From Gemmatimonadota bacterium (GTDB lineage: Bacteria > Gemmatimonadota > Gemmatimonadetes > Longimicrobiales > RSA9): a DNA stretch of 64,000 nucleotides. Each line of letters opens with the position of its first letter. Position 1 is the stretch's first letter. Of the stretch, positions 11,156-42,509 are shown one piece after another. The stretch is from NCBI GenBank assembly GCA_017881445.1, contig JADGQX010000002.1, forward strand, positions 610 through 64,609, read 5' to 3'. The position numbers and the translations under genes were made by a program. The notes beneath the pieces were generated by a model that worked only from the letters and a program-made list of their open reading frames with translations, did no database searches and was not told where the DNA came from.

Positions 11156-11588
11156 ATGACGAGGCTCCGTGGTGTCGCGCTGGTGTCATTGCCGCTGGTG
11201 GCCCGGCTGCTCCTGGCCGGCAGAGCCGCCGCCCAGTCTGGCGCCTGCCCGCCCGGCTCCAGGACCCGCGAGCACCAACGTTCCCGACGCGCAGTACCCG
11301 TGCGTCGACGCCGAGCGGCGGGTGACGTTCCAGGTGCGGGCGCCGAACGCGCAATCGGTGAGCGTCAGCATCGCGGGGACTACGCCCGGCGCGCGCAAGC
11401 TGGCGAAGATCGTGGGATCGTGCTACGCGGCGTTCGCGCGAACCGGCAATCCGAACTGCGACCAGGTGCCGAAGTGGCCGCCCTACGACCGTGCCTCCCG
11501 GGCGACCATGATCTACGAACAGGAATGCCGGGTGGAGAACGACCCGACCGGGGTGCTACGGTCGTTCTGGGAGGGCGCGGATGCCTGA
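11156..11588 (+). pseudogene. chimeric esterase remnant: signal peptide and Ig-like start of a CE1-type esterase fused to the C-terminal tail of a type-B carboxylesterase
   Basis: Frame 2 from ATG 11156 gives MTRLRGVALVSLPLVARLLLAGRAAAQS. Homology then continues in another frame as VPDAQYPCVDAERRVTFQVRAPNAQSVSVSIAG (compare [17 protein letters not shown] in 35176..36504). It then jumps to LAKIVGSCYAAFARTGNPNCDQVPKWPPYDRAS (compare LADKISSYWINFVKTGNPNGAGLPNWPAYTAAN at the end of 22775..24442). No catalytic core remains. Confidence 0.45.
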
Positions 11589-11766
11589 TCCGCGCGGGCG
11601 CTTGATGGCCGCGGACGGGCAGGCGGGTCCGACCGCGCCTCCCCGTCCTCCCGTGACGGCGGTTGCCGGGCGGGCGGGCCCATCCGTACTATCGTCGACA
11701 CCCGATGGAGACTGGCGCGGGACGCCCCACCCGCGCCAGGCGACCTATCTTGCCGCAGAGGGTTCC

Positions 11767-16984: not shown

Positions 16985-17019
16985 GCCGAGTACAACCACC
17001 CTCAAACCGACGAAGAGCC

Positions 17020-18576
17020 ATGCGAAATCAAATAACGATATCGGCGGCCTTGCTGGGCCTCGTGGCCCTCACCGGCTGCCTGGATAACTCGCTGGACCTT
17101 ACCAACCCGAACCAGATTACGGCTGAGACCTTCTGGAAGACCAAGGCCGACGCGGTCAATGCCACCAACGGGCTCTACGCCAGCCTGTACTCCCGGGGGA
17201 TGTGGGGCCGCAACCGGTATGATTTCTGGGGTCGCAGCGACGTGATCATGAGCCGGAGCCCCGCAGGGAATATTCAGGCCGCCCTGCGCGGCGTCGTCAC
17301 GGACTACAACTATACCGGGTTCCTTGCCGGTATCTGGAACGATCCGTACCAGGGCATCTTCCGCGCGAACCAGGTGATCGCCAGAGTGCCGACGATGAGC
17401 CTCGATGCCGCCACGACGAGTCAGCTCGTGGCCGAGGCGAAGTTCATCCGCGCCCTGATGTATTTCCACCAGACCCTCATCTTCAAGAACATCCCCCTCA
17501 TCCTCGAGGAGGTCGACGCCAGTACCCAGCCGAAGTTCACTCCGCAGGCGGACGTCTATAAGCAGGTGATCAAGGACGCCTCCGAGGCCGCCGCGGCCCT
17601 GCCCTGGGTGTGGACCGGCGCCGACAAGGGCCGTGCCACGAAGGGCGCCGCCCTGGCGCAGGCAGCCGAAGCCAACATGATGCTGGGCAACTGGCAGGCG
17701 GCTGCGGACATGCTGCAGCAGATCGTTGATTCCGGGCAGTACCGCTTGCTGCCGAACTACGTGGACCTGTTCACGATCCCCGCGGGGGAGCAGAGCGCCG
17801 AGTCCCTCTTCGAGGTCGCGTTCGGTGACCAGAACAATTACGTCGGCGGCGCGTACGGGAACATCTGGCCACGGCTGATCGGACCCCAAACGGGGAACTG
17901 CTCGACGTGCGGCTCCCTCGGCTTCAGCGACCAGCAGCCGACCCAGTGGGCGTTCGACCTCTTCTTCCAGGATGGGTCCGGACCTTACCCGACCAACGAG
18001 GACCCTCGCCTGGATGTGAGCATCTTCTGGAACCGGCCGGGCGGCATGGACGTCTTCGGAACGGCGTTCGCTACGCGCTACGCGAAGACGGGTCCGGGTG
18101 GCATTCCCGGCTACTACGACCAGGACCTTAACCATACGTTCTTCTTCAAGAAGTACCAGGAGTATTGGTTGACTCAGCTGGCGAACTTCGCCAACCCGAT
18201 CAACTACAAGGTCTACCGGCTGGGCCAGATCTATATTATGCTCGCCGAGGCCCGGGTGGAGCTCAACCAGGTGCCTGCGGCCAAGGCGGCGGTCGACGTG
18301 GTGCGGGCGCGCGCCGGCGTCCCCCCGATGCCTGCGGGATTGAGTTCGGACAGCGCGCGGATGTACGTCAACCGCGAGGCCGCCCGCGAGCTCTTCGCGG
18401 AGGGCCACACCCGCCTCGCGTACCTGTTGCGGCACAACTGGCTCACGAAGGAGTACCTGGCGTCACGGAACCCCTTCCACGCCTCGCAATTCATTAATGG
18501 GCATAACGACTACATGCCCATCCCGCAGCCGGAGATGAACCTCAACCCGAACGCAGTGCAGAATCCCGGCTGGTAA
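17020..18576 (+). CDS. susD: SusD/RagB-family surface lipoprotein
   Basis: It lies immediately downstream of susC. The lipoprotein signal is AALLGLVALTGC. NPNQITAETFWKTKADAVNATNGLYASLY and the TPR-like body are typical of SusD. Confidence 0.9.
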   Translation: MRNQITISAALLGLVALTGCLDNSLDLTNPNQITAETFWKTKADAVNATNGLYASLYSRGMWGRNRYDFWGRSDVIMSRSPAGNIQAALRGVVTDYNYTGFLAGIWNDPYQGIFRANQVIARVPTMSLDAATTSQLVAEAKFIRALMYFHQTLIFKNIPLILEEVDASTQPKFTPQADVYKQVIKDASEAAAALPWVWTGADKGRATKGAALAQAAEANMMLGNWQAAADMLQQIVDSGQYRLLPNYVDLFTIPAGEQSAESLFEVAFGDQNNYVGGAYGNIWPRLIGPQTGNCSTCGSLGFSDQQPTQWAFDLFFQDGSGPYPTNEDPRLDVSIFWNRPGGMDVFGTAFATRYAKTGPGGIPGYYDQDLNHTFFFKKYQEYWLTQLANFANPINYKVYRLGQIYIMLAEARVELNQVPAAKAAVDVVRARAGVPPMPAGLSSDSARMYVNREAARELFAEGHTRLAYLLRHNWLTKEYLASRNPFHASQFINGHNDYMPIPQPEMNLNPNAVQNPGW

Positions 18577-19171: not shown

Positions 19172-19551
19172 CTCGGAGCTCCTCCCGGCCCACTCGCCCG
19201 GGGAACGGCGGCCCACTATGGCCGTCCCCCGGTGTCCGTCCCACGCCGTGGCCCCCCTGCCAGCCTCTGCCCGAGGCCCGCGCAAGGTCTATCTGCAGGC
19301 CGAGCTGAAGATCCCGGAGACCACCGCCCCGCCTTGCGGGAAGCCATCATCTCCCGGGCCCGTGGCCCGCACGGGCTGAGCGCGAAGGAGCAGTTCTCTC
19401 GGCGAGGAGATTGCCCCCCCTCCCTTCGTCAGCGCACCGCGGTCTGAGCCACCGAGCAGGAACGCGCCGGCAGCTCGAACGTCATTTTGCGGGCGGGGGC
19501 AGGTGCGTTGTTCGTGGCGTCTCGCTGCGGGTTGAGGACCCGCGGTACTCG

Positions 19552-20709
19552 TCAGGGCCGACCGATCCGGCGGTGCCAGTCTTCGGCGAACAGGTCGAAG
19601 TGCAATTCCTTCATGGGGTGCTCACGAATGAAGTCCTCGTTGAGCCCCACGCCCAGACCGGGGCCGCCCGGGATCGGAAAATACCCGTCTTTGACCTCCG
19701 GGTATCCCGGTCCGGATGCCGCCTCCTTTACCCAGGAATCCACGAAGTCGTTGAAGTGCTCCTGGATCGTGAAGTTCGTCGTGCAGGCGGCCAGGTGCAA
19801 ACACGCCGCGGTGCTGAGGGGACCGCCGACGTTGTGCGGTGCGAAGGTCACGTACTGGGCGTCGGCCATGGCCGCGATCTTCTTTCCCTCCAGGAGTCCG
19901 CACGACTGCGTGATGTCCGTCTGCAGGATGTCCACACATCCCAGCTCGAGCAGATGCTTGACCTCGTAGCGCGTATGCACACGCTCGCCCGTGGCCACCG
20001 GGATGTCGATCTTGGCCGCCACCTTCGCGAGCATCTCGGCGTTGTCCGGCGGGACGGGCTCCTCGACCCACGCCGGTCGGAACGGTTTCAGCTCATGAGC
20101 CATCTCGATGGCCGTCGCGGGGCTGAATCGGCCGTGCATCTCCACCAGGATCTCCACGTCGGGCCCTACCGCGTCGCGCACGGCTTCCACGAGAGAGATC
20201 GCCAGCCTCTTCTGCTTCGGCTCCAGCTCGTAGAATCCAGCCCCGAACGGGTCCAGCTTGAGCGCGAGGTACCCGCGATCGACCACGCGCCGTGCTGCAA
20301 CGTGGAACTCCTGTGGAGTCCGCTCCACGGTGTACCACCCGTTGGCGTACGCCTTGATCCGGTCCCGCACGGCACCGCCGAGCAGGCGGTACACGGGTTG
20401 GTCGAGGGCCTTGCCCACGAGGTCCCAGCACGCGATCTCGACCAGAGCGATGCCCATGCCGGCGATGTCGGCGACACGGGCGAAGTCTCCGACGAACATG
20501 CGGTGCACGAGCTTCTCGATCTCCATGGGATCGGAGCCCAGCACGTACTTCCCCTTGGCGGCGGCGAGATACGCCAGCACCGCCTCGGTACGGTTCACAC
20601 TGCGAGCCTCGGACACGCCCACCAGTCCTTCGTCCGTTTCCAGCTTCACGAACACGAGGTTGCGCCAGGGGGTCCCGAGAACAAGCGGAGTCAGGTCAGT
20701 GATGATCAT
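19552..20709 (-). CDS. enolase-superfamily (mandelate racemase / galactonate dehydratase-like) sugar-acid dehydratase
   Basis: The 385-aa protein carries VKLETDEGLVGVSEA, IACWDLVGKALDQPVYRLLGG, LKLDPFG, VEMHGRF, WVEEPVPPDN, ATGERV and HNVGGPLSTAA, which are MR/MLE family blocks. Confidence 0.85.
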   Translation of the reverse strand: MIITDLTPLVLGTPWRNLVFVKLETDEGLVGVSEARSVNRTEAVLAYLAAAKGKYVLGSDPMEIEKLVHRMFVGDFARVADIAGMGIALVEIACWDLVGKALDQPVYRLLGGAVRDRIKAYANGWYTVERTPQEFHVAARRVVDRGYLALKLDPFGAGFYELEPKQKRLAISLVEAVRDAVGPDVEILVEMHGRFSPATAIEMAHELKPFRPAWVEEPVPPDNAEMLAKVAAKIDIPVATGERVHTRYEVKHLLELGCVDILQTDITQSCGLLEGKKIAAMADAQYVTFAPHNVGGPLSTAACLHLAACTTNFTIQEHFNDFVDSWVKEAASGPGYPEVKDGYFPIPGGPGLGVGLNEDFIREHPMKELHFDLFAEDWHRRIGRP

Positions 20710-20742
20710 CGGCTTCTCTGAAGGAGTCGGCGCCCAACGCCA

Positions 20743-22774: not shown

Positions 22775-24442
22775 ATGAAATACGGGATGATCCTGACGGC
22801 GGGAGTCGCTGTGCTCACGGGAGTTGCAGTGCTCACAGGGGATTGCGCCGCCCAAGCGAAAGCGCCGCACCCGGGTCCGATCCAGGCGGGAGAGAAGGTC
22901 GCGGTGGTTTCGACGCAGTACGGCGCCGTTCGTGGGTACATCGATGACGGCATCTACGCCTTCAAAGGCATTCCGTACGCGAAGGCGGATCGGTTCATGC
23001 CGCCCCAGCCACCGGACCCGTGGAAGGAGGTCATGCAGACCACGCTGTACGGGCCGCAGGTGATGCAGAGGACGGCACAGGACTGGACCGGGCAGAGCGA
23101 CGCGAATTTCGGGTTCCAGTTCAGCCGCGAGCCGATGGACGAGCACGCGAGCCTGGTGCTGAACGTCTGGACGAAGGGCATCAACGACGGCCGCCAACGT
23201 CCCGTGTGGGTTTGGATCCACGGTGGCGGTTATTCGGCCGGATCGGCGAATCAGCTTCCGTTCTTCGACGGGCGGGCGTTGGCCAACAAGGGCGACATCG
23301 TCGTGGTGACGGTCAATCACCGGCTCAACGTCCTCGGCTACGTCGACCTGAGAGGCCTGGGCGGCAAGTACTCCGAATCGGTGAATCTGGGTCAGCAGGA
23401 CCTGGTGGCGGCCCTGAAGTGGGTACACGAGAACATCAAGAACTTCGGAGGCGACCCCAGCCACGTCACCATCGACGGGCAGTCGGGAGGTGGCGGCAAG
23501 GTCTCCACGCTGACAGCCATGCCTTCCGCGGCCGGCCTGTTCCAGCGGGCCATCGTTCAGAGCGGCTCCACGCTCAGGGTCGGCAACAGTGAGGACAGCA
23601 AGGCCTACGGCCTCGCGTTCGCCAGGGCGCTCGGCGTCGCTCCCGAGAACACCCAGAAGTTGAACGACTTCACGTACGACGAGCTGGTAGCGGCCAGCCG
23701 GAAGGCCTCAGAGAGCCTCAGGCAAGCCGGAGCCCCGCCCACGGGTATGGGCGGCATGGGCCCGACGGTGGACGGGAAGTACATCGTACAGAACCCCTTC
23801 GATCCGACGCCGGCCGACTTCTCGAAGAACGTCGCGATGATGATCGGTTCCAACCTGCACGAGTTCGCATATACCAACCGCCAGATCATCACGCCGCAAA
23901 CGATGGATCAGGTGAAGGCGACCCTCACGCAGCGGTACGGGGCCGAGAACGCGGAGAAGTACATCAAGGCATACCAGCAGGCATATCCCAACGACCACCA
24001 GCCTCAGCATATCCTGATGACCAACGTCCGCACCAACCCGCTCAAGCAGGCGGCCGTGAAGAGCGCCCAGGGCGGAGCGCCCGTCTACGTGTACCTGTTC
24101 GAGTGGCAGTCGCCGGTCAACGACGGCAGCCTCGGCGCGGCGCACGGCATGGAGCTTCCCTTCATGTTCAACAACATCGCCATGGCCCGCACGTTGACGG
24201 GCGGCGGTGAAGAGGCCTACGCGCTCGCCGACAAGATCAGCTCCTACTGGATCAACTTCGTGAAGACCGGCAATCCGAACGGTGCAGGCCTGCCGAACTG
24301 GCCGGCGTACACGGCCGCGAACGGATCCACCCTGAGCTTCGACAACCAGGTTCAGGTCAAGAACCATCACGATCAGGCTCTGGTCGATCTTGGCGCCTCA
24401 CTTCCCCCGGTCCAGAGGCTGCCTACTGCAGCGGCAAGGTAG
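22775..24442 (+). CDS. type-B carboxylesterase (para-nitrobenzyl-esterase-like), secreted
   Basis: Blocks are FKGIPYAKADRFMPPQP, VWVWIHGGGYSAGSA and the nucleophile elbow IDGQSGGGGKV, with a C-terminal NFVKTGNPNG. A signal peptide is present. Confidence 0.9.
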   Translation: MKYGMILTAGVAVLTGVAVLTGDCAAQAKAPHPGPIQAGEKVAVVSTQYGAVRGYIDDGIYAFKGIPYAKADRFMPPQPPDPWKEVMQTTLYGPQVMQRTAQDWTGQSDANFGFQFSREPMDEHASLVLNVWTKGINDGRQRPVWVWIHGGGYSAGSANQLPFFDGRALANKGDIVVVTVNHRLNVLGYVDLRGLGGKYSESVNLGQQDLVAALKWVHENIKNFGGDPSHVTIDGQSGGGGKVSTLTAMPSAAGLFQRAIVQSGSTLRVGNSEDSKAYGLAFARALGVAPENTQKLNDFTYDELVAASRKASESLRQAGAPPTGMGGMGPTVDGKYIVQNPFDPTPADFSKNVAMMIGSNLHEFAYTNRQIITPQTMDQVKATLTQRYGAENAEKYIKAYQQAYPNDHQPQHILMTNVRTNPLKQAAVKSAQGGAPVYVYLFEWQSPVNDGSLGAAHGMELPFMFNNIAMARTLTGGGEEAYALADKISSYWINFVKTGNPNGAGLPNWPAYTAANGSTLSFDNQVQVKNHHDQALVDLGASLPPVQRLPTAAAR

Positions 24443-24632: not shown

Positions 24633-27600
24633 ATGAGAAAGGGAATCGGCCGGGCTGCGCTGCTCGCGTTCATGCTTGCACTGCCTGTCGTGGCGGCAGC
24701 ACAGAGCGCCAGGGGAGGCACTGCCCGGCCCCGGCCCGAGGGCCCGTGCGATATCTACGCCGCCGCGGGCACGCCGTGCGTAGCGGCCCACAGCAGCACG
24801 CGCGCGCTGCTGGCCTCCTACAACGGGCCGCTTTACAAGGTGATGCGCCAGTCGGACGGCCGGACGCTGGACGTCGGCGTGGCGCAGCCCATCGCCTCGC
24901 CGGTGCCAGATGCGGGCGGCTACGCGGATGCCGCGGCGCAGGACCGGTTCTGCGCCGGTACCTACTGCTGGATCACGACCCTCTACGACCAGTCCGGGAA
25001 AGGGAACCACCTGGTGCAGGCGCCGCGCGGCGCGTTCATCGGTTCGGCCATGGGCGGGTTCAACACTCTGCCGATCGCCGACATGGCCCCGGTCACGCTC
25101 ATGGGCAGGAAGGTTTACGGGACCTTCATCGCGCCGGGCATGGGGCTCCGCTGGAACGACCCGCGGGGCACGGCGGTCGACGACCAGGCGGAGGGGCAGT
25201 ACTGGGTGATCAACGGCCAGCACTACAACTCCGGCTGCTGCTTCGACTACGGCAACGCCGAGACGGACAGCCGCGATGATGGCGATGGCACCATGGAGAC
25301 CACCTACTACGGCAATGCCACGTTGTGGTACTACGGAACCCGCCGGGGCCCGTGGGTCATGACCGACCAGGAGAACAACCTGGTGGGTTGCGTCAACGAG
25401 TCGCCGAATGACAAGCACTGCCCGGACCTGCCGACCATCACCTGGCGCTTCGTCACCGCTACGGCCGATGGCGAGCCACACCACTGGCGCACGCTGGCCG
25501 GCGACGCGCAGCGGGGCGAGCTGCAGGTCATGTTCGACGGCCCGCGCATAAAGAACGACCGGAGCAGCTACGACCCGATGCGCAAGCAGGGGGCGATCGT
25601 ACTGGGCAACGGCGGGGACAACAACAACTACTCGCAGGGCACCTTCTATGAAGGGGCCATGACGGCGCCGGGCACCTTCCCGAGCATGGATACGTACCGG
25701 AAGATCCAGGCGAACATCGTGGCCGCGCGCTACGACGTTCCGCGGCTCGTTCTGGCGCCCGCCTCGGCAGTCGATGCACCCCCCGGGCTGCAGACGTTCT
25801 CGCCAGGCTCGTCGCGTAGCAGCACCCTCACCTTCACGAACACCACCGGGGCGCCTGCGAGCAACGTGAAGCTGAGTCTTACCGTGCCGGCCGGGTGGCG
25901 CTCGGTGGCGGCGGGCTCGACGGACACGTTCGCCAGCGTGGCGGCGGGCGGTAGCGTGAGCGTCACCTTCAAGGTGACCTCGGGGCCGACCGCCTTCAAC
26001 GGCGACCTGGTCGGCAACGCCTCCTGGACCAGCTCGGGGCGCCCGCAGTCCGAGGTGGCCGCGCAGAAGGTGCGCAACGTCAGTCCGGTCAAGCTCAACG
26101 AGTTCCGGGTCAGTGCCGGCGCTAACACCACGGACTCTTTCATCGAGCTGTACAACGCCGGCAACGCGCCCATCGACATGTCCGGCTGGACCCTGACGCA
26201 GCACCAGACGCAGTTGCCCAGCTTCTCGGCCGTGCGGATCCCGGCCGCGACGCGGCTCGCGCCGCATGGCTTCTACCTGCTCGGCCTCTCCACCTCCGGG
26301 CTGGCAGTCCCCGCCCGTCGCGGTGATGCGACCATTTACGTCCGGAGCACGAAAGGCATGTCCGTGGGCGGTGAGCTCCAGATCGGCACCGGATCGGCCC
26401 TTGAGACTCGCCGGATTGTGAGCGTCGGCACGGCAGCGGGGCTGCCTGCCGCGACGGGCGGAGGTTTCGGTTTCAATCGCGCGTACACGGCGGGTGGTCC
26501 GACGACCCTGTGGCAGCCGCTTCCGGACGGGCCGGTGATCACGATTCCCGCTGGCTCGACCAACGTGCCGGTCGCCAGTGTAGCGGGCTTCGAGGTGGGC
26601 CAGAAGATGGCCATCGGCCATGGTGCGACCTATCCGGCGGTCGGGAGCGGGATCGAGAAGTACGAGGTGGTCACGGTGACGGGAGTCGGCAAGCCGGGCA
26701 CGCAGGCCTGGCTCTCCCGGGAAGCGAGGAAGGGCGACACCAATATCAAGGTGTCGTCCACCGCCGATATCTCGGTCGGTGACAGGATCCGGCTGGATAT
26801 CGACAGCAAGGGGCACGGGATCGAGTGGGTCACCGTGACGCGCGTCGGCACGCCGTCGGTCCGCAACACCGTTTTCGGGGGTCCGTTGCGCGAGGGTGAG
26901 GATCCCGGCACGGGCCTCGATCTGGCCGAACCGCTCAAGTTCGAGCACGCGCCCAACATGCCTTTCAGCGTGCGCGGGACGGGTATCGGCTTCACGCCCG
27001 CGACGCGCTTCGCGCACTCGAGCAACGAGCCGGTGCTGCCGCTTGGCACCGGGATCACCATGGACCAGCCGCTCTCCAGGGATTACCCGATCGACGCGGT
27101 CGTGCGTGACCCCAACGTCAGCGTGGCCGGCTACCAGGGAGCGCAGGCGCCCAACCAGTGGTTCGGCGGACCCGCGCTCAGCCCAAGCGCCGGCAACATG
27201 GTTCTGCGCGATGCCCCCGGTAATGTTGTCGAAAGCCTGAACTACGGTGCCCTGGTCGAGCCCTGGGCTGCGGAGGGCTACCAGGGCACGTCCGGAGCAG
27301 GGTACCAGAGCGGCTGCAGTGTGGGCTCGCCTGGCACGCCGCCGGCGCGGCCCGGCTTCGGCGCCGCGGCTCCTCCGGCCGACGTCCCCAACCGGAGCGC
27401 CGGCCGCTTACCGGACGGCCAGGACACTGACAGCAACTGCAACAATTTCCAGCTGCAGGCAGTCGCCAACCTCGCGGCAGCTGCAGTCCCAGGCAGCGAC
27501 AACCTCAAGGTGGGCAGCGTGGACGGACTTGCCGCCGGGCAGAGGATCATGATCGGCAGCGCCGCCGACGTGGAGACGGCCGTGATTGCCGCGGTAGGCA

Positions 27601-27968
27601 CGCCTGGGGCCTCCACGCTGCGCGCCGCCACCGAGACGGGGGCGACCATCGTCCCGGTCGTCAGCATCACGGGCTTCACCACCGGCCAGACCATCACGAT
27701 CGGCAGCGGGACGAACCAGGAGACGGCGGTCGTCGCCTCCACCAGCCGCGGCAGCTTCCGCGGCCCGGGCGGCCCGGGCGGTCAGGCGGGGCCGACCATT
27801 ACCGTCACAGCGCCGCTCACCAGCGCTCACGCCGCGGATGTCCAGGTCTCAGGCAGCGGCATCACGCTCACGACGGCATTGACCCGCACGCACGCCAGCG
27901 GCGCGGTCTTGACCGACGAATTGCCGACGCCCGGCGCGCCCAACCAGTTCCAGAAGAGGATGCAGTAG
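24633..27968 (+). CDS. GH54 alpha-L-arabinofuranosidase catalytic domain with a ~750-aa atypical C-terminus (NEW3-like Ig, lamin-tail-like domain, repeated modules)
   Basis: GH54 (AbfB) blocks are present: GPCDIYAAAGTPCVAAHSSTRAL, LYDQSGKGNHL, CCFDYGNAETDSRDDGDGTMET, GPWVMTDQENNL and GAIVLGNGGDNNNYSQGTFYEGAMT. After these come TLTFTNTTGAPASNVKLSLTVPAGW, then VKLNEFRVSAGANTTDSFIELYNAGNAPIDMSGWTL, and later NRSAGRLPDGQDTDSNCNNF. Confidence 0.85.
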   Translation: MRKGIGRAALLAFMLALPVVAAAQSARGGTARPRPEGPCDIYAAAGTPCVAAHSSTRALLASYNGPLYKVMRQSDGRTLDVGVAQPIASPVPDAGGYADAAAQDRFCAGTYCWITTLYDQSGKGNHLVQAPRGAFIGSAMGGFNTLPIADMAPVTLMGRKVYGTFIAPGMGLRWNDPRGTAVDDQAEGQYWVINGQHYNSGCCFDYGNAETDSRDDGDGTMETTYYGNATLWYYGTRRGPWVMTDQENNLVGCVNESPNDKHCPDLPTITWRFVTATADGEPHHWRTLAGDAQRGELQVMFDGPRIKNDRSSYDPMRKQGAIVLGNGGDNNNYSQGTFYEGAMTAPGTFPSMDTYRKIQANIVAARYDVPRLVLAPASAVDAPPGLQTFSPGSSRSSTLTFTNTTGAPASNVKLSLTVPAGWRSVAAGSTDTFASVAAGGSVSVTFKVTSGPTAFNGDLVGNASWTSSGRPQSEVAAQKVRNVSPVKLNEFRVSAGANTTDSFIELYNAGNAPIDMSGWTLTQHQTQLPSFSAVRIPAATRLAPHGFYLLGLSTSGLAVPARRGDATIYVRSTKGMSVGGELQIGTGSALETRRIVSVGTAAGLPAATGGGFGFNRAYTAGGPTTLWQPLPDGPVITIPAGSTNVPVASVAGFEVGQKMAIGHGATYPAVGSGIEKYEVVTVTGVGKPGTQAWLSREARKGDTNIKVSSTADISVGDRIRLDIDSKGHGIEWVTVTRVGTPSVRNTVFGGPLREGEDPGTGLDLAEPLKFEHAPNMPFSVRGTGIGFTPATRFAHSSNEPVLPLGTGITMDQPLSRDYPIDAVVRDPNVSVAGYQGAQAPNQWFGGPALSPSAGNMVLRDAPGNVVESLNYGALVEPWAAEGYQGTSGAGYQSGCSVGSPGTPPARPGFGAAAPPADVPNRSAGRLPDGQDTDSNCNNFQLQAVANLAAAAVPGSDNLKVGSVDGLAAGQRIMIGSAADVETAVIAAVGTPGASTLRAATETGATIVPVVSITGFTTGQTITIGSGTNQETAVVASTSRGSFRGPGGPGGQAGPTITVTAPLTSAHAADVQVSGSGITLTTALTRTHASGAVLTDELPTPGAPNQFQKRMQ

Positions 27969-28139
27969 GCAGGGCCCTGAAAGAGGATCGGGATGGCGCC
28001 GGCCCGGTTCATACGGACCGGCCAGAACACTTTGCAACGTTGGGTGGATGACAACCTGCGTGCTGCCGTCGGCCTGGGAGACCCGATCGCCGGTGGTCAG
28101 CACGCGCAAACTGGCGGGCTGCCCCGCCGAGAGGACGGC

Positions 28140-29765
28140 ATGAACCCTCCACGTTTCAGTTGGCTGTCGATCAGCGCCTGCGTGGCGCTGGGACTGGCGG
28201 GTGCGCTTCCCGCCGCAGCACAGGGGCCGGGGTTTGCGCCAGCCGCGGTCGGCACGAAGATCGCCGATGGCGAGGCTTACGCCACGGTCGTGGTGCTGAA
28301 GCACCAGAGCAACGCCGCCGACAACGGCCGCATGCTGCTGGCCTACGAGGCCAATAACTTCGACGGCATCCCGATCTGGGAATCGACGGACCAGGGCTCC
28401 AGCTGGCATTTCGTCACCAACGCGAAGGACCCGATGGTGACGGACCGGCCACGCTGCGAGATGCACTGGCAGCCGCATCTCACCGAGATGCCTCGCACGC
28501 AGCACGGCATTGCCGCCGGCACGGTGCTGCTTTCGGCCAGCACGCTGTGCCAGCAGCCGCCCCCCGGGCGCGGCAATGAGCGGATGTTCCTGCGGCTGTT
28601 CACGTCCGGCGACTTCGGCCGCAGCTGGAATTACGTCAGCACCTACGCCGAGGCGCCCGGCGCCGAACCCGTCTGGGAGCCGCAGCTGCTCATCCTGGAC
28701 GACGGCACCTTCGTGGAGTTCTACTCCGACGAAATGCATAAGCGCGAGGGCTACAACCAGCTGCTCGGCCACAAGGTGTCGAAGGATGGCGGCAAGACCT
28801 GGGGTCCGCTGGTGTTCGATGCCGCGAATCCCGGAGGGGTCGAGCGGCCAGGAATGGTGATCATCGACCGGCTGCCCGACGGCCGGTACGTATACAATTA
28901 CGAGGACGTCGAAGGCCCCGTTCACATGCAGGTGCACCTGAAGTTCAGCAAGGACGGGCTGCACTGGGGCGACCCGGAGGACCGCGGCACACCCGTACAG
29001 ACGCCGAGTGGACGGTACCCGGAGAGCACCCCGAACGTGTTCTGGTTCCCGGTTGGCGGGCCGAAGGGGATCATCGCGGTGACGTCGCGCAGCCTGAACG
29101 GGCCGGGCCGCGACGACAACGGCAATACGATCTTCTGGAACAACAACCTCGGCGTGGGGCCGTGGTGGGAAGCGCCCACCCCCGTGCAGAAGCTCGGTAA
29201 CAGCCGCGCGGGCTGGACGCAGGCGCTGGTGCGCCGGCCCGACGGCCAGTTCCTGCACGTAACGTCGAGCGCTTCGGCCGATCCCGCGCGCACGCGCAAC
29301 AGCACCGCCAACGAGATCCTGTTCAAGGTGGGCCCGATCAACTTCAACCGTTACGAGGCGGAAAGCGCTGGGCAGAAGGGCTCGGCCATCATGCGCGACG
29401 GCTCGATGTCGAACGGTGCAAAGTCGCGCCTGGGCGCCAAAGACGTGGGCAAGCTGAGCTTCCCGGTGCACGTGGCGTCCGCGGGCAGGTATGAACTGAC
29501 CGTGGAGTTCACGGGCATCGGCTTCGATGCTACGCCCCGCCTGTCCGTGAACGGCACCCTGGTGGCGGGCTCGGTGACCACGGCGCCCGTGAACCCGGCC
29601 CGGACTGCGCGGCGAGCCGTCGACCTTGGGACGCGCGGCGCCGGCGAGCGAAAGCTGCTGCGCGTGACCGCACAGCTCCGGGCCGGCGACAACGCCATCG
29701 AAGTACTGGGCGGCGAGTACGCGCTCGACGTGGATTACCTCGAGGTCACGCCGGCCGGGTCCTGA
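28140..29765 (+). CDS. BNR/sialidase-fold beta-propeller protein (GH93-like exo-arabinanase candidate) with a C-terminal CBM6/35-like domain
   Basis: ATG 28140 follows GAGAGG, with signal peptide ACVALGLAGALPAAAQG. Four Asp-box-like motifs are present: STDQGSSW, SGDFGRSW, SKDGGKTW and SKDGLHW. The C-terminus NRYEAESAGQKGSAIM...RYELTVEF...DNAIEV...LDVDYLEV looks like a carbohydrate-binding module. Confidence 0.65.
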   Translation: MNPPRFSWLSISACVALGLAGALPAAAQGPGFAPAAVGTKIADGEAYATVVVLKHQSNAADNGRMLLAYEANNFDGIPIWESTDQGSSWHFVTNAKDPMVTDRPRCEMHWQPHLTEMPRTQHGIAAGTVLLSASTLCQQPPPGRGNERMFLRLFTSGDFGRSWNYVSTYAEAPGAEPVWEPQLLILDDGTFVEFYSDEMHKREGYNQLLGHKVSKDGGKTWGPLVFDAANPGGVERPGMVIIDRLPDGRYVYNYEDVEGPVHMQVHLKFSKDGLHWGDPEDRGTPVQTPSGRYPESTPNVFWFPVGGPKGIIAVTSRSLNGPGRDDNGNTIFWNNNLGVGPWWEAPTPVQKLGNSRAGWTQALVRRPDGQFLHVTSSASADPARTRNSTANEILFKVGPINFNRYEAESAGQKGSAIMRDGSMSNGAKSRLGAKDVGKLSFPVHVASAGRYELTVEFTGIGFDATPRLSVNGTLVAGSVTTAPVNPARTARRAVDLGTRGAGERKLLRVTAQLRAGDNAIEVLGGEYALDVDYLEVTPAGS

Positions 29766-29871: not shown

Positions 29872-30747
29872 ATGCGACGCATATGGGTACGCGCGACCGC
29901 CGCGCTGACGGTCCTCCTCGCGGTCACTGTCTGGCACCCGCGGGCCGCCAGCTCACAGTCGATCCCCGGAGCCAACAAGGCGATCCAGGTATTCAGCGAC
30001 GTACCTTACCGTTCCGGTGAAAGCAAGGCCTTCCGCCTGGACCTGGCGCTGCCGCCTCGCGCGGGCAACCAGCTCCGGCCCGCCATCGTGATCGTGCACG
30101 GCGGCGGCTGGGCGGCGGGTTCGAAAACCGACGCGGTGTACCAGGGGTTGCTGCTCGACTACGCCCGCCAGGGCTACGTCACCACTTCCGTCGAGTACCG
30201 GCTGACCCGCGAAGCGCCGTTCCCGACCGCGGTGGCGGACGTTAAGTGCGCGGTGAAGTGGGTGCGCGCCCATGCGAAGCAGCTGGGCGTGGACCCGGAC
30301 CGGATCGGGGCCTACGGCCATTCCGCGGGTGCGCACCTGGTCATGATGGCCGCGCTCGTGCCCGAATCCGCCGGCCTGGACGGCAACGACTGCGACTGGA
30401 AGGGCGTCTCGGGCAATGTCAACGTGGTCGCTGCGGGCTCCACGCCCACCGAGGGCGGCGCCCGGCAGCCCGCGGAGCGGCAGAAGCCGGAGTTCTGGCC
30501 GATCGGCTACATCCGCAAGGATGTGCCGCCCATGCTGGTGATCCAGGGCACCGCGGATCCCATCGTCCGCGCGGAGCTCACCGATTCGTTCATCGAAAAG
30601 ATCAAGGCGGCCGGTGCGCCGGACGTCACCTACATCCGGGTGGAGGGTGGCGCTCACGCCGTCGCTTACTCCGACAGCCTGAGAATCACCCGTCCGGCCA
30701 TGGACAGTTTCTTTGCTCGTACCCTGAAGCCGGGGCTCCCGAAGTAG
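29872..30747 (+). CDS. alpha/beta-hydrolase esterase (Abhydrolase_3/BD-FAE-like), secreted
   Basis: GGAGA lies 6 nt before the ATG. Motifs are AIVIVHGGGWAAGSK, the nucleophile elbow GAYGHSAGAHL, and QGTADPIV. Confidence 0.8.
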   Translation: MRRIWVRATAALTVLLAVTVWHPRAASSQSIPGANKAIQVFSDVPYRSGESKAFRLDLALPPRAGNQLRPAIVIVHGGGWAAGSKTDAVYQGLLLDYARQGYVTTSVEYRLTREAPFPTAVADVKCAVKWVRAHAKQLGVDPDRIGAYGHSAGAHLVMMAALVPESAGLDGNDCDWKGVSGNVNVVAAGSTPTEGGARQPAERQKPEFWPIGYIRKDVPPMLVIQGTADPIVRAELTDSFIEKIKAAGAPDVTYIRVEGGAHAVAYSDSLRITRPAMDSFFARTLKPGLPK

Positions 30748-31036
30748 CGAAATGCGGGCCTTCTGACTGGCGCTGGTGATGCTCTGCGATGCCCGCGCCG
30801 CAGCGGCGCAGGTGGTGAACTCGAAGGTGATCGACAAAGGGGGGCAGCGGCGCCGTACCACGCGATCGGCGGCCACGGAAGCGTCGCTGTCTACCAGCCG
30901 CGGGATCTAGCGGCTGCGGCCCGCGCGGAGGGCGCGCTGCTCGACGCCTGTTTCGCGTGGCGCCGGACCCCGGAAGGAGCTGCGTGGGCCAAATGAACGA
31001 CCGCGCCAGCAGGGCGCATAGCGCGCCTCTCACCCG

Positions 31037-32089
31037 ATGCCACTGAGGACGACTATGATGCCGAGCCGAAAACTCGCATGGTGCTGCGCGGTGCTGGCGA
31101 TCACCATCTCTTCTGCTGGACGGGCCGCCGGCCAGCAGCCGCAGCAGCCACCGTTCAACCCCACGAGCCCGAATGTCCATGACCCCGTCATGGCCAAGGA
31201 GGGGGACACCTACTACGTGTTCGGTACCGGACGAGGGATTCCCACCCTTCACTCCAAGGACCTGATCACGTGGGAGCAGGGCCCGCCCGTCTTCGCAGAC
31301 GTGCCGGAATGGACGAAGCAGGCGCTGCCCGGATTCAACGGTGACATCTGGGCGCCCGACATCATCTACTACCAGGGCCGCTATCACCTCTTCTACGCCT
31401 GCAATGCCCTGCCCGGCAAGCCCCACGCGGCCATCGGCCACGCGTCCAACCCCACACTCGACCCGAAGAGCCGGAACTTCAAGTGGACCGACCACGGCAA
31501 GATCGTGCAGTCGGTCATGGGCCGGGACACCTGGCAGGCCATTGACCCCAACGCCGTGCTCGACGAGAGCGGCCATCCCTGGCTCGCCTTCGGCTCGTTC
31601 TGGGATGGCATCAAGCTGGTGCGGCTGAGAGACGACATGATGGGCCTGACCTGGCCGGAGGAATGGCACAGCCTGGCCCGTCGCCCCAGCGCCCAGCGGC
31701 CCTACGAGTATTCCCTGCGCGACAGCCAGATCGAGGCGGCCTTTATCTTCAAGCGCGGTCCCTACTACTACCTGTTCGTCTCCTTCGACCTCTGCTGCCG
31801 CGGCGTGAACGGCGATTACAAGATCGCCGTCGGCCGCTCCACCGACCTGACCGGCCCGTATTTCGATCGCCAGGGCGTAGACATGCTGGATGGGGGCGGC
31901 ACGATCGTCGCCAAAGGGGACGGCGCCCGCTGGGCCGCGGTCGGCCATAACGGGGTCTACCGGATGGACGGAAAGGACTACATGGTAACGCACGCCTACT
32001 CCATTCCCGACAAGGGAGCCTCGAAGCTGGTGGTCAAGGAGCTGACGTGGGACGGGGATGGCTGGCCGGTGGTAGACCTGCTGAAGTGA
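31037..32089 (+). CDS. GH43 endo-1,5-alpha-L-arabinanase, secreted
   Basis: VHDPVMAKEGDTYYVFGTG, IWAPDIIYYQGRYHLFY, AIDPNAVLDESGHPWLAFGSFWDGIKL and IEAAFIFKRGPYYYLFVSFDLCC are classical GH43 arabinanase blocks. Confidence 0.9.
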   Translation: MPLRTTMMPSRKLAWCCAVLAITISSAGRAAGQQPQQPPFNPTSPNVHDPVMAKEGDTYYVFGTGRGIPTLHSKDLITWEQGPPVFADVPEWTKQALPGFNGDIWAPDIIYYQGRYHLFYACNALPGKPHAAIGHASNPTLDPKSRNFKWTDHGKIVQSVMGRDTWQAIDPNAVLDESGHPWLAFGSFWDGIKLVRLRDDMMGLTWPEEWHSLARRPSAQRPYEYSLRDSQIEAAFIFKRGPYYYLFVSFDLCCRGVNGDYKIAVGRSTDLTGPYFDRQGVDMLDGGGTIVAKGDGARWAAVGHNGVYRMDGKDYMVTHAYSIPDKGASKLVVKELTWDGDGWPVVDLLK

Positions 32090-32174: not shown

Positions 32175-33248
32175 GTGCTGCAGATCCGATCGGGCAGCTT
32201 GGCGGTTGTCCCGCTACTGCTGGCGCTGGCGGTGCCCGCCACGGCACAGCAGCCCAAGGGCGCGGTGAGCAGCAGCATAGCCGCCCGGCGACCGGTGTTC
32301 GGTGGGGCGTGCAAGCTCTGTCCGTGGGGGGCGCTGGGGGAGGTGGTGCGCCAGGCCATGCAGCCTTATGGCTACGAGGTACGGATCTGCCACAACTGCA
32401 GTGGTAGCAATGCCCCGCTGATCGTGGCGGACCGGCGTGAGCCGCCCCCGTACCGCCCGGACCCGAACGTGTCCGAGCTGCTCGCCCCCCAAAACGAGCC
32501 CGGGCTCGGCTCCATCGACTTCGGAGCCACCGCCGTGCAGTTCATAGTGGGGGCCTACCGCGGCACGGGCCCGTACGCGCGGGAACAGCCCCGCAAGAAC
32601 CTGCGGTTGATCGCGAACATCCAGTCGCCGAACTACCTGGTCGTTGCGGCCCGCGCCGAGACCGGCATCACGGACCTCTCACAGGTGCGCGCGAAGCGCT
32701 GGCCGGTCAAGGTCTTGTCGGGCGGCAGCGGCGTCGGGCTGAACGATTCGATCCTGGCGTACTTCGGAATTCCTCGGGACAGCATCCTGGCATCGGGCGG
32801 CCGGATCGGTGCGGACCGCGCCGACCGCCAGGACTTCGACATCATCATCCATTCCTGCCAGGGCCTCACCAGCGCGCCGGAGTTCGATGTGTGGACGGAC
32901 GTGAGCCAGCGCTTCCGCCTGAACTACATCCAGTTGCCCGACGAGCTGCTCGCGAAGATCGCGGCCGATGACTACTACGACCAGGCGCTCATCCCCGTGG
33001 GGCTCATGCCGGGCATCGAGCGCCCGATCAAGGCCGTGGTCCGCACTGGAACGGTGGTCTACACCACGGCGGCCGTGCCCGACGAGTTCGCGTACGCCGT
33101 CGCCAAGGCGCTCGACGAGCAGCAACAGATGCTGCAGTGGAGCCAGCTGAACTTCTCGTACAACAGCCACAACGTCTGGAAGGCATTCGAGGTGCCGCTG
33201 CATCCCGGCGCCGAGCGCTACTACCGGGAGCGCGGTTACCTCAAATGA
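32175..33248 (+). CDS. TAXI-family (TRAP-associated, NMT1_3-like) periplasmic solute-binding protein, orphan
   Basis: AGGAG lies 6 nt before GTG 32175, with signal peptide LAVVPLLLALAVPATAQQ. The C-terminal signature PLHPGAERYYRERGYLK is typical of TAXI receptors. No TRAP membrane component lies in the window. Confidence 0.65.
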   Translation: MLQIRSGSLAVVPLLLALAVPATAQQPKGAVSSSIAARRPVFGGACKLCPWGALGEVVRQAMQPYGYEVRICHNCSGSNAPLIVADRREPPPYRPDPNVSELLAPQNEPGLGSIDFGATAVQFIVGAYRGTGPYAREQPRKNLRLIANIQSPNYLVVAARAETGITDLSQVRAKRWPVKVLSGGSGVGLNDSILAYFGIPRDSILASGGRIGADRADRQDFDIIIHSCQGLTSAPEFDVWTDVSQRFRLNYIQLPDELLAKIAADDYYDQALIPVGLMPGIERPIKAVVRTGTVVYTTAAVPDEFAYAVAKALDEQQQMLQWSQLNFSYNSHNVWKAFEVPLHPGAERYYRERGYLK

Positions 33249-33337
33249 CGACTGTGCATGTATCCACGTGGGCAGGGCACCGAAAGATCACGGCGGCGCG
33301 ACCGCCGACACGTACCATCCACCACGGTGAGAGACCG

Positions 33338-34564
33338 ATGAAGACTCCTGTGATCCTGCTGTTCGGCCTGGCCCTCGCCTGCGTCGCGGGCCCGGCGCGA
33401 GCTGAGGTACCGCTCAAAGACTACAGTTTCGTCCGGGGCGTCAACTACGGGATGACCGCAGACACGGTGCAGCTGGTGCGAGAGCTCGGTTACGCCAAAC
33501 GCATCAATCTCAACAGCACCCGCATCTGGCTCAGCTACCAGGCGTACGAGCGCGATCCGCAGGGGTACATCAATCGGCTTCGGACCTACATCCGGATCAG
33601 TCATCGGCTGGGCTTCACCACCATGCCGATCCTCTGGAACGGCAACGGCCTCGATCCGGCAACGCTGAAGCCCGATTTCCGCCCGAAAGGGGATGTGTAT
33701 GTAAAAGCGATCGTCGAGGCCATCAAGGACGAGCCCGGCCTGCTCATGTGGGATATCATGAACGAGCCCCTGTGGAACGACTACGTCAACGAGGCACCGG
33801 CCGACGCCAAGACCCAGAGGATCGCCGAGATCACCGGGTTCACTCGCTACTACGTCACCTACGTCAAGAAGCTGGATCCGAAGAATGCCGTCACCGTCGG
33901 ACACGTCGTCGCCGAGCACCTGAAGGGGGAAGCCGATCTGGTGGACGTGCTCACCTTCCACGACTACACCGGACTGCGCTCGACCATAGAGGCAGCCTAC
34001 GACACGGCCAAGGCGTATGCGACCAAGTACAACAAGCCGATGATGAACACGGAGACGGGTTGCATCGCCCGCGCCAATCCGTACGACCTCGTGCTGCAGA
34101 TCGCGGAAGAGCGCCATACCGGTTGGTACGTGTTCAACCTGATCGTCTCGGGGTACTGGGGCGAGATTCACGGCATCTTCTATCCTGACGGCACCATCCG
34201 GGATCCGGCCATCGTGGCGGCGGTCATGGGCTTCTATCGCAACCGGAACCTGGAGACGATCATCAGGCCCGTGCCCAACCGTGAAGGGCACGCGACCGAG
34301 GCGATCAATGCGATCCAGGCAGCCCTGAACGACAACCCGAGCACCTTCCGCTACACCCGCAACTCGCTCGACAAGATCCTGGACGCGGCGGAGATGGCGG
34401 CGAACCTGCTCGAGTCCGCCGAGATGGTGCCGATGAACGTGCCGCCGACCGCGCGGATCAAGTTCTGGCGCAGCCAGGCGCCTGAGAAGCGGGATCGCGA
34501 TGCAATCCGGGCGTTCGCGTACGAGCTGGGGCAGACGCTCAAGAAGAACACCCTGCAGTACTGA
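33338..34564 (+). CDS. clan GH-A (GH5-like) glycoside hydrolase, paralogue of 11767..12975
   Basis: ATG 33338 gives signal peptide MKTPVILLFGLALACVAGPARA. Motifs are LLMWDIMNEPL and KPMMNTETG. It shares the block IHGIFYPDGTIRDPAIVAAVMGFYRNR and a helical C-terminal ~110 aa with the paralogue. Confidence 0.7.
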   Translation: MKTPVILLFGLALACVAGPARAEVPLKDYSFVRGVNYGMTADTVQLVRELGYAKRINLNSTRIWLSYQAYERDPQGYINRLRTYIRISHRLGFTTMPILWNGNGLDPATLKPDFRPKGDVYVKAIVEAIKDEPGLLMWDIMNEPLWNDYVNEAPADAKTQRIAEITGFTRYYVTYVKKLDPKNAVTVGHVVAEHLKGEADLVDVLTFHDYTGLRSTIEAAYDTAKAYATKYNKPMMNTETGCIARANPYDLVLQIAEERHTGWYVFNLIVSGYWGEIHGIFYPDGTIRDPAIVAAVMGFYRNRNLETIIRPVPNREGHATEAINAIQAALNDNPSTFRYTRNSLDKILDAAEMAANLLESAEMVPMNVPPTARIKFWRSQAPEKRDRDAIRAFAYELGQTLKKNTLQY

Positions 34565-34647
34565 GGTGGAGAGTATCGTGCCCGGTCCGGTAGGAAAGGC
34601 GAATCGAGTTCGCACGACCTGCCGTGGCCGGGTAGAAGCTGAAGTAG

Positions 34648-36504
<1,857 letters not shown>

Positions 36505-36610
36505 GGATTCAGGGGCGGGCCGTCGGTCCGGGCGCCAGTCGGGGGCCGACGGCCTCGCTCCACGCATTCACTCACTTGGGGACAACACCACTCGCAGGAG
36601 GGGATTCCTC

Positions 36611-40504: not shown

Positions 40505-40538
40505 CAACGGTTTCAGCCCAGTACTTTTGAGGCTTATC

Positions 40539-42473: not shown

Positions 42474-42509
42474 GATCTGGCGGCTCGCTGGCAATGGCGT
42501 CTCGGCAGT

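Follow-up and report, generated by a model that had tools for sequence, protein, structure and literature searches.

AkAbfB from Aspergillus, a fungal GH54 enzyme carrying a CBM42, is the nearest solved structure (1wd3/6sxt, E~1e-101) to the catalytic domain of the protein described here. We found no characterised bacterial GH54 in literature searches, and the "GH54" that appears in PUL papers is most likely GH5_4 instead. Bacterial GH54s that possess a lamin-tail domain (LTD) and NPCBM_assoc have, however, already been listed in an in-silico survey (PMC8155123).

Further related systems are found in phages and contractile tails. In tailspikes, six-stranded insertion barrels make the substrate groove deeper (PMC5701251), and the rider domain of the K1 lyase binds capsule sugar, contributing to two sugar-binding sites, and stabilises the trimer (PMC8822698). 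The phage rider (K1 lyase, 7w1c/PF24149; LKA1 gp49, 4ru4; AP22 gp54, 4y9v; phi92 gp150, 6e0v) is related to the P22 coat-protein I-domain. In contractile-tail sheath proteins such as T4 gp18 and diffocin CD1363, successive domain insertions form a "Russian doll" (PMC6088184).

The window analysed in this study is a stretch of 64,000 nucleotides of DNA from a Gemmatimonadota bacterium. The ORF of 1111 aa at 24633..27968 on the plus strand, on which all features given below also lie, was confirmed as real. Residues 1-23 (24633..24701; MRKGIGRAALLAFMLALPVVAAA|Q) were predicted by eye to form a Sec signal peptide: inspection of the sequence revealed a basic N-terminus, a hydrophobic core and an AAA|Q site, and the lipobox Cys was absent. 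This segment was poorly conserved among homologues (28% identity), as is expected of signal peptides. The genes flanking the ORF encode SusC, SusD, COesterase, a BD-FAE esterase, GH43 and a GH5-like protein, and more GH43 genes as well as GH51-like, MFS_2 and GH9 genes are located elsewhere in the window. When the neighbouring genes were counted over 80 loci, COesterase was found in 6, GH43 in 5 and BD-FAE in 3. That is, the conservation of the neighbourhood is limited, and after these counts we downgraded synteny as strong functional evidence. The protein is probably a secreted, exo-acting alpha-L-arabinofuranosidase of a SusC/SusD-type hemicellulose-utilisation locus.

The initial annotation, which was made from the sequence by itself, had assigned the N-terminal part of the protein to GH54, and the GH54 profile does score this domain. 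PF09206 (ArabFuran-catal) of Pfam matched aa 38-367 (24744..25733) with 385.3 bits (cutoff 25; E=2.6e-115), covering positions 1-314 of the 315 of the profile. The catalytic domain is homologous to that of AkAbfB from end to end, and its mean identity to 66 full-length homologues was 79%. Cys202-Cys203, Asp245, Glu247 and Asp329 align with C176-C177, D219, E221 and D297 of AkAbfB, and all of these residues are conserved. We take E221 of AkAbfB to be the nucleophile, D297 the acid/base and C176-C177 a vicinal disulfide, the equivalents of which would be Glu247, Asp329 and Cys202-Cys203, respectively. Arabinofuranosidase activity of the GH54 domain is thus predicted from the profile match and the conserved catalytic residues.

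The two enzymes differ in what accompanies this domain. The fungal enzyme has CBM42, whereas the bacterial protein of the SusC/SusD locus has NEW3, LTD and arrays of barrels that appear to be nested. The absence of CBM42, which had been claimed at the outset, was borne out: the CBM42/AbfB profile of Pfam matched neither the whole protein at E<=1 nor its C-terminal segments at E<=10. Ordinary annotated domains were looked for in the C-terminal region with Pfam and NCBIfam and were not found beyond NEW3 and a partial LTD, and the C-terminal segments searched with both gave no matches. The predicted NEW3-like Ig domain is indeed present at aa 390-458 (25800..26006), where PF10633 (NEW3 / NPCBM_assoc) scored 49 bits (cutoff 24.4; E=7.2e-13). 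The identity of this domain among the 66 homologues was 62%.

The N-terminal two thirds of the LTD are located at aa 483-556 (26079..26300). PF00932 matched aa 483-553 with 39.8 bits (cutoff 34.3), covering only positions 5-70 of the 109 of the profile. In the AF2 model this part has 6-7 strands, and Foldseek matched it to lamin Ig folds over ~60-73 columns. The profile match breaks after about two thirds, and a repeat-bearing segment of ~290 aa comes next. The initial annotation had proposed that the LTD is split and that its end lies ~330 aa later, at about 27190-27450. The interruption of the N-terminal match and the presence of the later sequence both hold; that the LTD resumes there is plausible, and the later sequence is a candidate for the missing strands. 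The segment behind the array, aa 827-945 (27111..27467), contains a conserved stretch, AGYQG..APNQWFGGPAL, together with the strands that may form the C-terminal part of the LTD (GNMVLRDAPGNVVESLNYG ... NRSAGRLPDGQDTDSNCNNFQLQ); AF2 predicted 4-5 strands in it, and a low-confidence loop at aa 873-917. When the insert was deleted in silico, the Pfam match to LTD grew to positions 6-108 of 109, with 44.9-47.2 bits. However, a control consisting of the N-terminal half of LTD and one of the repeat modules (the A module described below) reached positions 6-107 with 46.2 bits, equal to the putative C-terminal half. Since an unrelated module extended the match just as far, we withdrew the splice test as proof of LTD completion.

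The repeats are constructed as follows. A unit of ~70 aa, predicted to form a beta-barrel, consists of an A half (three strands and a short helix; pattern G..I.V....GF..GQ.I.I..G...E...I..VG) and a B half that stands further downstream (pattern I.L..PL..H..G..V). The protein has five copies of each, in the order AAABBB in the LTD region and then AABB at the C-terminus. The five repeated modules reported earlier are therefore real: profile self-alignment gave probabilities of 90-98.8%, and an HMM built from the modules quoted at that time (modA) found every A copy with E=1e-16 to 1e-18 (7.9e-16 for the last one). They are not stand-alone modules of ~35 aa, as had been supposed, and instead represent the A half of the barrel; the five B hairpins (aa 759-826 and 1053-1096; modB HMM, E~1e-7 to 1e-8 each) had been missed. 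Self-BLASTP of the C-terminal half revealed no repeats, and profile methods were needed.

In array 1, the A half of the outermost barrel, A_a, is located at aa 557-602 (26301..26438; modA E=5.9e-17), and its HHalign probability with the other A copies was 90-97%. It is followed at 26439..26537 by a variable loop (aa 603-620) and the connector GGPTTLWQPLPDGPV (aa 621-635). The loop showed 9% identity among homologues, is missing in two relatives (P0129 and P0246) and coincides with model residues 130-141, where the pLDDT of AF2 was <50; the connector is highly conserved (84%). The A half of the middle barrel, A_b (aa 636-689, 26538..26699; modA E=7.6e-18), has an internal extension of 10 aa and 76% identity, and that of the innermost barrel, A_c (aa 695-742, 26715..26858; modA E=3.5e-18), has 77% identity. 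Behind the loop of the innermost A|B junction (aa 743-758, 26859..26906) come B_c, B_b and B_a at 26907..27110 (aa 759-781, 782-803 and 805-826; modB E=1.6e-7, 1.6e-8 and 9.2e-8; identity 80%, 81% and 67%, respectively). Array 2 consists of the outer A1' and the inner A2' (aa 947-992 and 996-1037, 27471..27743; modA E=1.6e-16 and 7.9e-16), followed at 27789..27920 by B1' and B2' (aa 1053-1073 and 1074-1096; modB E~9e-8 each), which would close the inner and the outer barrel, respectively. The insert at aa 639-847 aligned with the tail at aa 952-1110 with a probability of 98.7% in the profile self-alignment. Close to the C-terminus lies the motif PTPGAPNQ (aa 1098-1105, 27924..27947), in which none of P, T, P, G and N varies across 85 sequences, and HHalign paired it with the APNQWF motif that comes after array 1.

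How the A and B halves pair was considered from the relatives. We collected 126 contiguous A-B units from this and other matched proteins, with a mean length of ~73 aa; one Glu and one His are invariant in all of them, and in tandem units the linker between A and B is 2-4 aa. The shallowest strings are AB, and deeper ones reach A4B4 and about A7B6. Of 43 strings with equal counts of A and B, 40 were balanced, compared with 12.8 expected by shuffling; this statistic is biased, since the database had been searched with an AABB query. Pairwise alignments with the window protein showed that P0129 and P0246 each have a single insertion of 60-65 aa, made of A and B, exactly at the A_c|B_c junction, where relatives thus carry an extra A-B unit. 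Moreover, 63 of 76 genome loci have AAABBB-AABB, and in 8 the first array is four deep, with the extra A and B adjoining at the centre. The free-standing A-B units, the equal counts and the extra central unit of the relatives together indicate that barrels are nested within barrels. We infer the exact three-dimensional pairing of A and B, including the reverse closing order B_c, B_b, B_a, so that array 1 would be bracketed as A_a(A_b(A_c-B_c)B_b)B_a. That is, each next barrel would be inserted between A and B, and the chain would exit via all A halves and return via all B halves. Three six-stranded barrels of ~70 residues would be formed in the LTD array and two more at the C-terminus.

Although the module had not been recognised, and indeed no Pfam model covers the A-B barrel, it does have relatives in fold. 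The AF2 models of the C-terminal regions had pLDDT values of 80.5 and 85.7, the latter for the tail. In Foldseek, they matched the barrel-bearing tailspikes 4y9v, 4ru4, 7w1c, 6e0v and 9k4a with a probability of ~1, with weak E-values against the PDB (0.009-0.3). Fold matches in BFVD, which included cyanophage tail-sheath proteins, reached E=7e-5, and single barrels matched over 81-95 columns at 1.3-4 A. The modelled A-B barrel thus resembles the rider or insertion barrel of phage tailspikes. The rider is a small six-stranded barrel of two three-stranded sheets and a short helix, inserted in a host domain of a protein that degrades polysaccharide, and the A-B unit would be built and placed alike. 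In contrast, similarity in sequence is marginal. PF24149 matched neither the window protein at E<=1 nor its C-terminal segments at E<=10; against its cutoff of 27 bits, contiguous A-B units gave E=0.069 at best and homologues E~0.5, and P0129 was the only homologue above it (28.0 bits, positions 3-48 of 89). The profile of the A-B unit found among PDB sequences only a marginal match to a phage tail tube (E=0.05). The rider is also single in phages, whereas in cellular glycosidases the barrel would be nested in itself, 2-3 deep here and up to ~7 deep elsewhere. The sheath proteins share with the present protein the successive insertion of domains into one another, but their domains are unlike each other, whereas the nesting proposed here is homotypic and variable in depth.

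The module homologous to A_c draws weak matches to PF24149 (K1-lyase_Rider) and PF01052 in relatives. The PF01052 (FliN/SpoA) matches of homologues, at <=32 bits, lie on the A module and span positions 8-38 of 73; we rejected a relationship because they are partial, and regard them as motif-level false positives. PF01052 did not match the window protein. The A-B domain is sometimes mislabelled FliN/SpoA or YuzE.

Two other readings of the structure have to be weighed. The LTD may be unsplit, a truncated N-terminal remnant followed by an unrelated domain at aa 827-945. In agreement with this, the appended A module lifts the LTD score as much as the putative C-terminal half, which by itself gave no LTD match in Pfam, and profile comparisons were uninformative: the spliced-LTD profile found only chance matches to photosystem D1 in the PDB, and HHalign with the Ig domain of human lamin A (an approximate query sequence) aligned only the FIELYN..W core, with a probability of 3%. 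However, two thirds of a beta-sandwich are unlikely to fold by themselves, a nested array brings the chain back to its start, and aa 850-872 and 918-945 are conserved and predicted to form strands; we take these two segments to resemble motifs of bacterial LTD C-termini. We therefore consider an unsplit LTD unlikely, and find it plausible that the LTD is completed behind the insert, where aa ~850-872 would provide profile positions ~70-109; a surface loop of its beta-sandwich would then host array 1. Still more improbable, in our judgement, is a structure lacking nested barrels, in which A and B pair in parallel order (interleaved or strand-swapped) or form separate continuous beta-structures. 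The order A..A B..B by itself would fit such a structure, and the collinear HHalign matches fit either model, but contiguous free-standing A-B units with linkers of 2-4 aa do occur in tandem arrays. Changes in depth always add one A and one B, next to each other in the middle of the array, whereas interleaving would re-assign every pair. In addition, single-domain phage structures could be superposed on a stretch of ~85 contiguous residues in the tail at 1.3-3 A; a superposition of this kind, over ~81-95 contiguous columns at 1.3-4 A, fits only if the contiguous A2' and B1' form one compact domain. In our literature searches on nested barrel repeats nothing was found.

The architecture had been regarded as unusual, but it is not: at least 574 species genomes, which belong to about ten phyla, contain it, the best relatives being MAGs of Gemmatimonadota, Planctomycetota and Longimicrobiaceae. 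The window protein belongs to the widespread "Bacterium I"-type GH54 family, and shares with that group the Pfam-visible architecture and the phyla (Acidobacteria, Verrucomicrobia and others); the survey covered Pfam domains only, and ~450 aa of Pfam-invisible barrel arrays were left undescribed (PMC8155123). Arrays up to ~7 deep occur in enzymes of the GH27, GH3, GH2, GH20, GH35 and GH78 types, and the A-B module is also present in S15/PepX-type hydrolases. An array nested in this way would have neighbouring ends, and could therefore be accommodated by loops in unrelated host domains.

The arrays might act as a new carbohydrate-binding module that replaces CBM42 and tethers the enzyme to arabinoxylan or arabinan. 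They are almost exclusive to secreted glycosidases (GH54 and the types listed above), the related K1-lyase rider contributes to sugar binding, and the inner barrels show high conservation, which includes His, Asn and aromatic residues of the B hairpins. However, the same module is carried by enzymes with very different substrates and by the S15/PepX-type hydrolases, which argues against one specific ligand, and the invariant Glu and His of every copy look structural; we regard this reading as possible at best. To the same tentative degree, the arrays might be passive spacers or stability elements, such as a rigid stalk or a folding nucleus like the P22 I-domain. For both the I-domain and the K1-lyase rider, a stabilising effect on folding or assembly has been reported, copy number differs widely between hosts, and conservation is lower in the barrels of the tail (52-60% identity). 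On the other hand, the inner barrels of array 1 (76-81% among 66 homologues) are as conserved as the catalytic domain and more so than NEW3, over about ten phyla, which is unusual for a spacer. Our best guess is that the arrays protrude as a rigid appendage, and that their conserved distal barrels may make contact with polysaccharide, or with the catalytic domain, and lend stability to the enzyme, as the rider domain does for the phage K1 lyase. With similar reserve, we speculate that the barrels form an uncatalogued, self-nesting and insertable family which by recursion at the beta3-beta4 loop could build rigid, hairpin-like stalks of one to at least seven barrels, set in loops that belong to either the catalytic or the accessory domains of numerous bacterial exo-glycosidases. 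The conserved distal barrels might contact glycans in a CBM-like manner or shape specificity, and the family may be linked in evolution to the decoration barrels of phage tailspikes and tail sheaths.

Taken together, we think it likely that the protein is a secreted GH54 of a SusC/SusD locus in which NEW3 is followed by an LTD hosting three nested barrels and by a C-terminal array of two. The enzyme is an ordinary, uncharacterised bacterial GH54, and the interest sits in its appendage: a domain not modelled in Pfam accounts for ~40% of the chain here, and stretches of hundreds of residues in enzymes of the GH27, GH3, GH2, GH20, GH35 and GH78 types consist of it as well. Should the nested arrays prove to bind or position polysaccharide, CAZy annotation and enzyme engineering would gain a new class of accessory module. 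Recursive insertion that is homotypic and variable in depth would, in addition, give studies of protein evolution and design a clean example from nature.

The open reading frame at 24633..27968 on the forward strand was confirmed, and its product consists of 1111 aa. The initial annotation had described GH54 catalytic blocks at the N-terminus, a NEW3-like Ig domain behind them and no CBM42. The Pfam search bore out these points: ArabFuran-catal was matched at aa 38-367 (E=2.6e-115) and NEW3/NPCBM_assoc at aa 390-458 (E=7e-13), and CBM42 gave no match in this protein. The nearest solved structures were the entries of AkAbfB, the Aspergillus arabinofuranosidase with CBM42 (E~1e-101). In the alignment, E247, D329 and C202-C203 are kept at the AkAbfB positions which we take to be the nucleophile, the acid/base and the vicinal cysteines. 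By eye, the first residues resemble a Sec signal peptide.

When aa 480-1111 was used as the query, 2227 proteins were obtained. The best 120 of them were 58-72% identical across the whole C-terminal part, had identical Pfam domains, and bore names such as "arabinofuranosidase catalytic domain-containing" or "lamin tail domain-containing". At least 574 carriers emerged when species-representative genomes were scanned; they are distributed over Bacteroidota, Acidobacteriota, Gemmatimonadota, Planctomycetota, Verrucomicrobiota, Ignavibacteria-type MAGs, KSB1, Balneolaceae and one Limnocylindrales MAG; cultured carriers include Maribellus mangrovi and Flagellimonas sp. The combination of ArabFuran-catal, LTD (lamin tail domain) and NPCBM_assoc was already recorded among bacterial GH54s by an in-silico survey (PMC8155123). 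The enzyme adds a member to a known family, and its architecture is widespread and already listed. No characterised bacterial GH54 was found in the searchable literature.

The gene is part of a SusC/SusD-type hemicellulose locus, with a TonB-dependent receptor (13880-16984), a SusD-like gene (17020-18576), a carboxylesterase (COesterase, 22775-24442), a BD-FAE esterase (29872-30747), a GH43 (31037-32089) and a GH5-like gene (33137-34564). Farther off lie a second GH43, a GH51-like arabinofuranosidase, an MFS_2 sugar transporter, an additional esterase and a GH9. Genes for plant-cell-wall degradation are dense in the window (1963-3345 on the minus strand, 13880-18576, 22775-24442, 29872-32089, 33137-36504, 39044-42473, and 46421-49330 on the minus strand), which holds the SusC/SusD pair, two GH43, the GH51-like, GH5-like, GH9 and MFS_2 genes and three esterases (COesterase, BD-FAE, PF00756). 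The ORF directly downstream of the GH54 gene (27993-29765, plus strand, 590 aa) showed weak BNR/sialidase-like and CBM35-like matches, all below the Pfam cutoffs, and the otherwise similar Flagellimonas gene cluster has no counterpart of it; the product may be an uncharacterised glycosidase carrying a CBM. Four large plus-strand ORFs (36173-38953, 42494-45028, 49419-51848 and 11581-12975; 926, 844, 809 and 464 aa) had no Pfam match at E<=1e-5, and a fifth (19411-20721, plus strand, 436 aa) had none at E<=1e-3. These five ORFs of a CAZyme-rich region are candidates either for unannotated carbohydrate-active proteins or for overlapping-frame artefacts of high-GC DNA (the GC content of this genome is ~66%). 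The ORF at 8283-10982 (plus strand, 899 aa) has a HAD-hydrolase match at its N-terminus and, in addition, a weak ASD1 (arabinofuranosidase) fragment; it may be two genes that the mechanical ORF call joined, or a genuine fusion.

The presence of SusC/SusD at so high a GC content points to a host outside Bacteroidota; the best GH54 relatives were found in Gemmatimonadota and Planctomycetota MAGs. Among 80 related loci the neighbours recur only now and then (COesterase in 6, GH43 in 5, BD-FAE in 3). Genes for carboxylesterase, GH54, BD-FAE esterase and GH43 form a small cassette that is repeated, in rearranged form, across distant phyla, at loci of a Draconibacterium MAG (L072), Flagellimonas sp. 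GZD32 (L073) and a Bacteroidetes MAG (L011); in GZD32 the order COesterase, GH54, BD-FAE, GH43 is comparable. The recurrence of this cassette in distant phyla and the 71-82% identity of the GH54 catalytic domain across phyla both suggest horizontal spread.

Self-BLAST detected no repeats in the protein. Self-comparison of the family profile aligned the insert at aa 639-847 to the tail at aa 952-1110 with a probability of 98.7%, and linked five modules of ~45 aa (A) to one another. Five further hairpins of ~22 aa (B) have the form I.L..PL..H..G..V. With HMMs built from the copies, the first array was resolved into A at aa 557-602, 636-689 and 695-742 (A_a, A_b, A_c) and B at aa 759-779, 782-803 and 805-826 (B_c, B_b, B_a); the second array, past the LTD-like segment, contains A at aa 947-992 and 996-1037 (A1', A2') and B at aa 1053-1073 and 1074-1092 (B1', B2'). 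The at least five copies of a ~35-aa module described earlier stand as five interrelated modules, with their size corrected to ~45 aa and the five B hairpins added. With 84% identity, the connector GGPTTLWQPLPDGPV (26493-26537, aa 621-635), which joins A_a to A_b, ranks with the best-conserved parts of the protein; it has a counterpart neither in the C-terminal array nor in other host proteins.

According to the initial annotation, the repeats apparently interrupt the LTD. The N-terminal two thirds of this domain are secure: the Pfam match at aa 483-553 stops at profile position 70, covering positions 5-70 of 109. When aa 557-849 were removed in silico, the match reached positions 6-108 at 44.9-47.2 bits, compared with 41.8 for the N-half alone. 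This gain is not specific, since 46.2 bits were reached with an appended A module (match up to position 107) and 43.2 bits with the C-half reversed. Comparing profiles with PDB sequences and with lamin gave no information. A putative split LTD that resumes after the insert is nevertheless the simplest interpretation, because the chain is brought back to where it left and the insert is followed by conserved stretches predicted as strands. Behind both arrays stands an APNQ(W)F motif (27150-27164, aa 840-844; 27936-27950, aa 1102-1106): HHalign paired AQAPNQWFGGP past array 1 with the C-terminal PTPGAPNQF, whose PTPG..N pattern does not vary among 85 homologues. The motif may be the closing strand of an array, or the last LTD strand moved to the C-terminus.

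A phmmer search with the tail against 1.84 billion representatives gave 373 proteins, many of which carry contiguous A-B units of ~68-75 aa with linkers of 2-4 aa and one invariant Glu and one invariant His. At aa 816 (27078-27080), in B_a, the outermost hairpin of the first array, our protein has Tyr (PLSRDY), where at least 90% of homologues have the His that is invariant in contiguous units. The strings observed include ABAB, AABB, AAABBB, AAAABBBB, about A7B6, and mixed forms such as ABABAAABBB; 40 of 43 equal-count strings were balanced in the manner of brackets, where shuffling predicts 12.8, a comparison biased by the AABB query. AAABBB-AABB occurs in 63 of 76 genome-encoded family members. 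A four-deep first array occurs in 8 of the 76, with the additional A and B side by side at the centre. Two homologues, P0129 (52% identical) and P0246 (44%), are set apart from our protein by one contiguous segment of 60-65 aa exactly at the A_c/B_c boundary, and in P0129 this segment is a complete A+B unit. When phage single-domain structures are superposed on the tail model, they cover ~81-95 contiguous residues at 1.3-4 Å, which fits only the contiguous A2'+B1' pair. The central insertions, the central four-deep arrays and this contiguous superposition speak for a recursive nesting of the form A_a(A_b(A_c-B_c)B_b)B_a and A1'(A2'-B1')B2', in which the three-dimensional pairing is inferred. 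Tail sheaths provide a known case of heterotypic "Russian doll" nesting (PMC6088184); for homotypic nesting of variable depth, as proposed here, no description was found in the literature.

The AF2 models of aa 480-1111 (pLDDT 80.5, pTM 0.75) and aa 945-1111 (pLDDT 85.7) are reasonably confident, and in them every module is predicted as strand-strand-short helix-strand. Foldseek against PDB matched phage tailspikes and depolymerases (4y9v, 4ru4, 7w1c, 6e0v, 9k4a, 7vul) and also F1/V-ATPase N-terminal barrels, with probability ~1 and weak E-values; BFVD gave 8 matches at E<=1e-3, among them proteins of the tail sheath and of tail assembly. The matching element of LKA1 gp49 is described as an insertion barrel of six strands, which makes the substrate groove deeper (PMC5701251), and that of K1 lyase as a P22 I-domain-like, trimer-stabilising "rider" domain that forms part of both sugar-binding sites (PMC8822698). 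No Pfam model covers the A-B unit, and PF24149 (Rider) stayed below threshold save in one homologue. PF01052 (FliN/SpoA) was rejected as a relative of the A module: its gathering score is exceeded by A modules of seven homologues (P0010, P0012, P0024, P0060, P0131, P0138, P0149), and the matches are partial, reaching across under half of its profile, and look spurious. Another homologue, P0116, is labelled "YuzE". The FliN/SpoA and YuzE labels look like a systematic annotation artefact for the A-B domain in public databases.

In conclusion, the repeats at the C-terminus represent a new form, not yet modelled, of a known kind of barrel, probably arranged by self-nesting. Their hosts include GH27-type alpha-galactosidases, GH3, GH2, GH78/Rha78A-type, GH20, GH35, S15/PepX-type hydrolases and a Sde182-like protein, and the host Pfam match is often divided into two stretches by the array, which indicates that arrays are placed inside host domains; adjacent ends of an array would explain how it can be so inserted. 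Mean identity to our protein among 66 full-length homologues was 79% for the catalytic domain, 76-81% for the inner barrels of array 1 (A_b, A_c, B_c, B_b), 62% for NEW3 and 52-60% for the tail barrels. This regional pattern argues against a passive spacer. It favours a putative specific role of the arrays, which may be contact with the substrate, contact with the catalytic domain, or stabilisation, in analogy to the rider domain.
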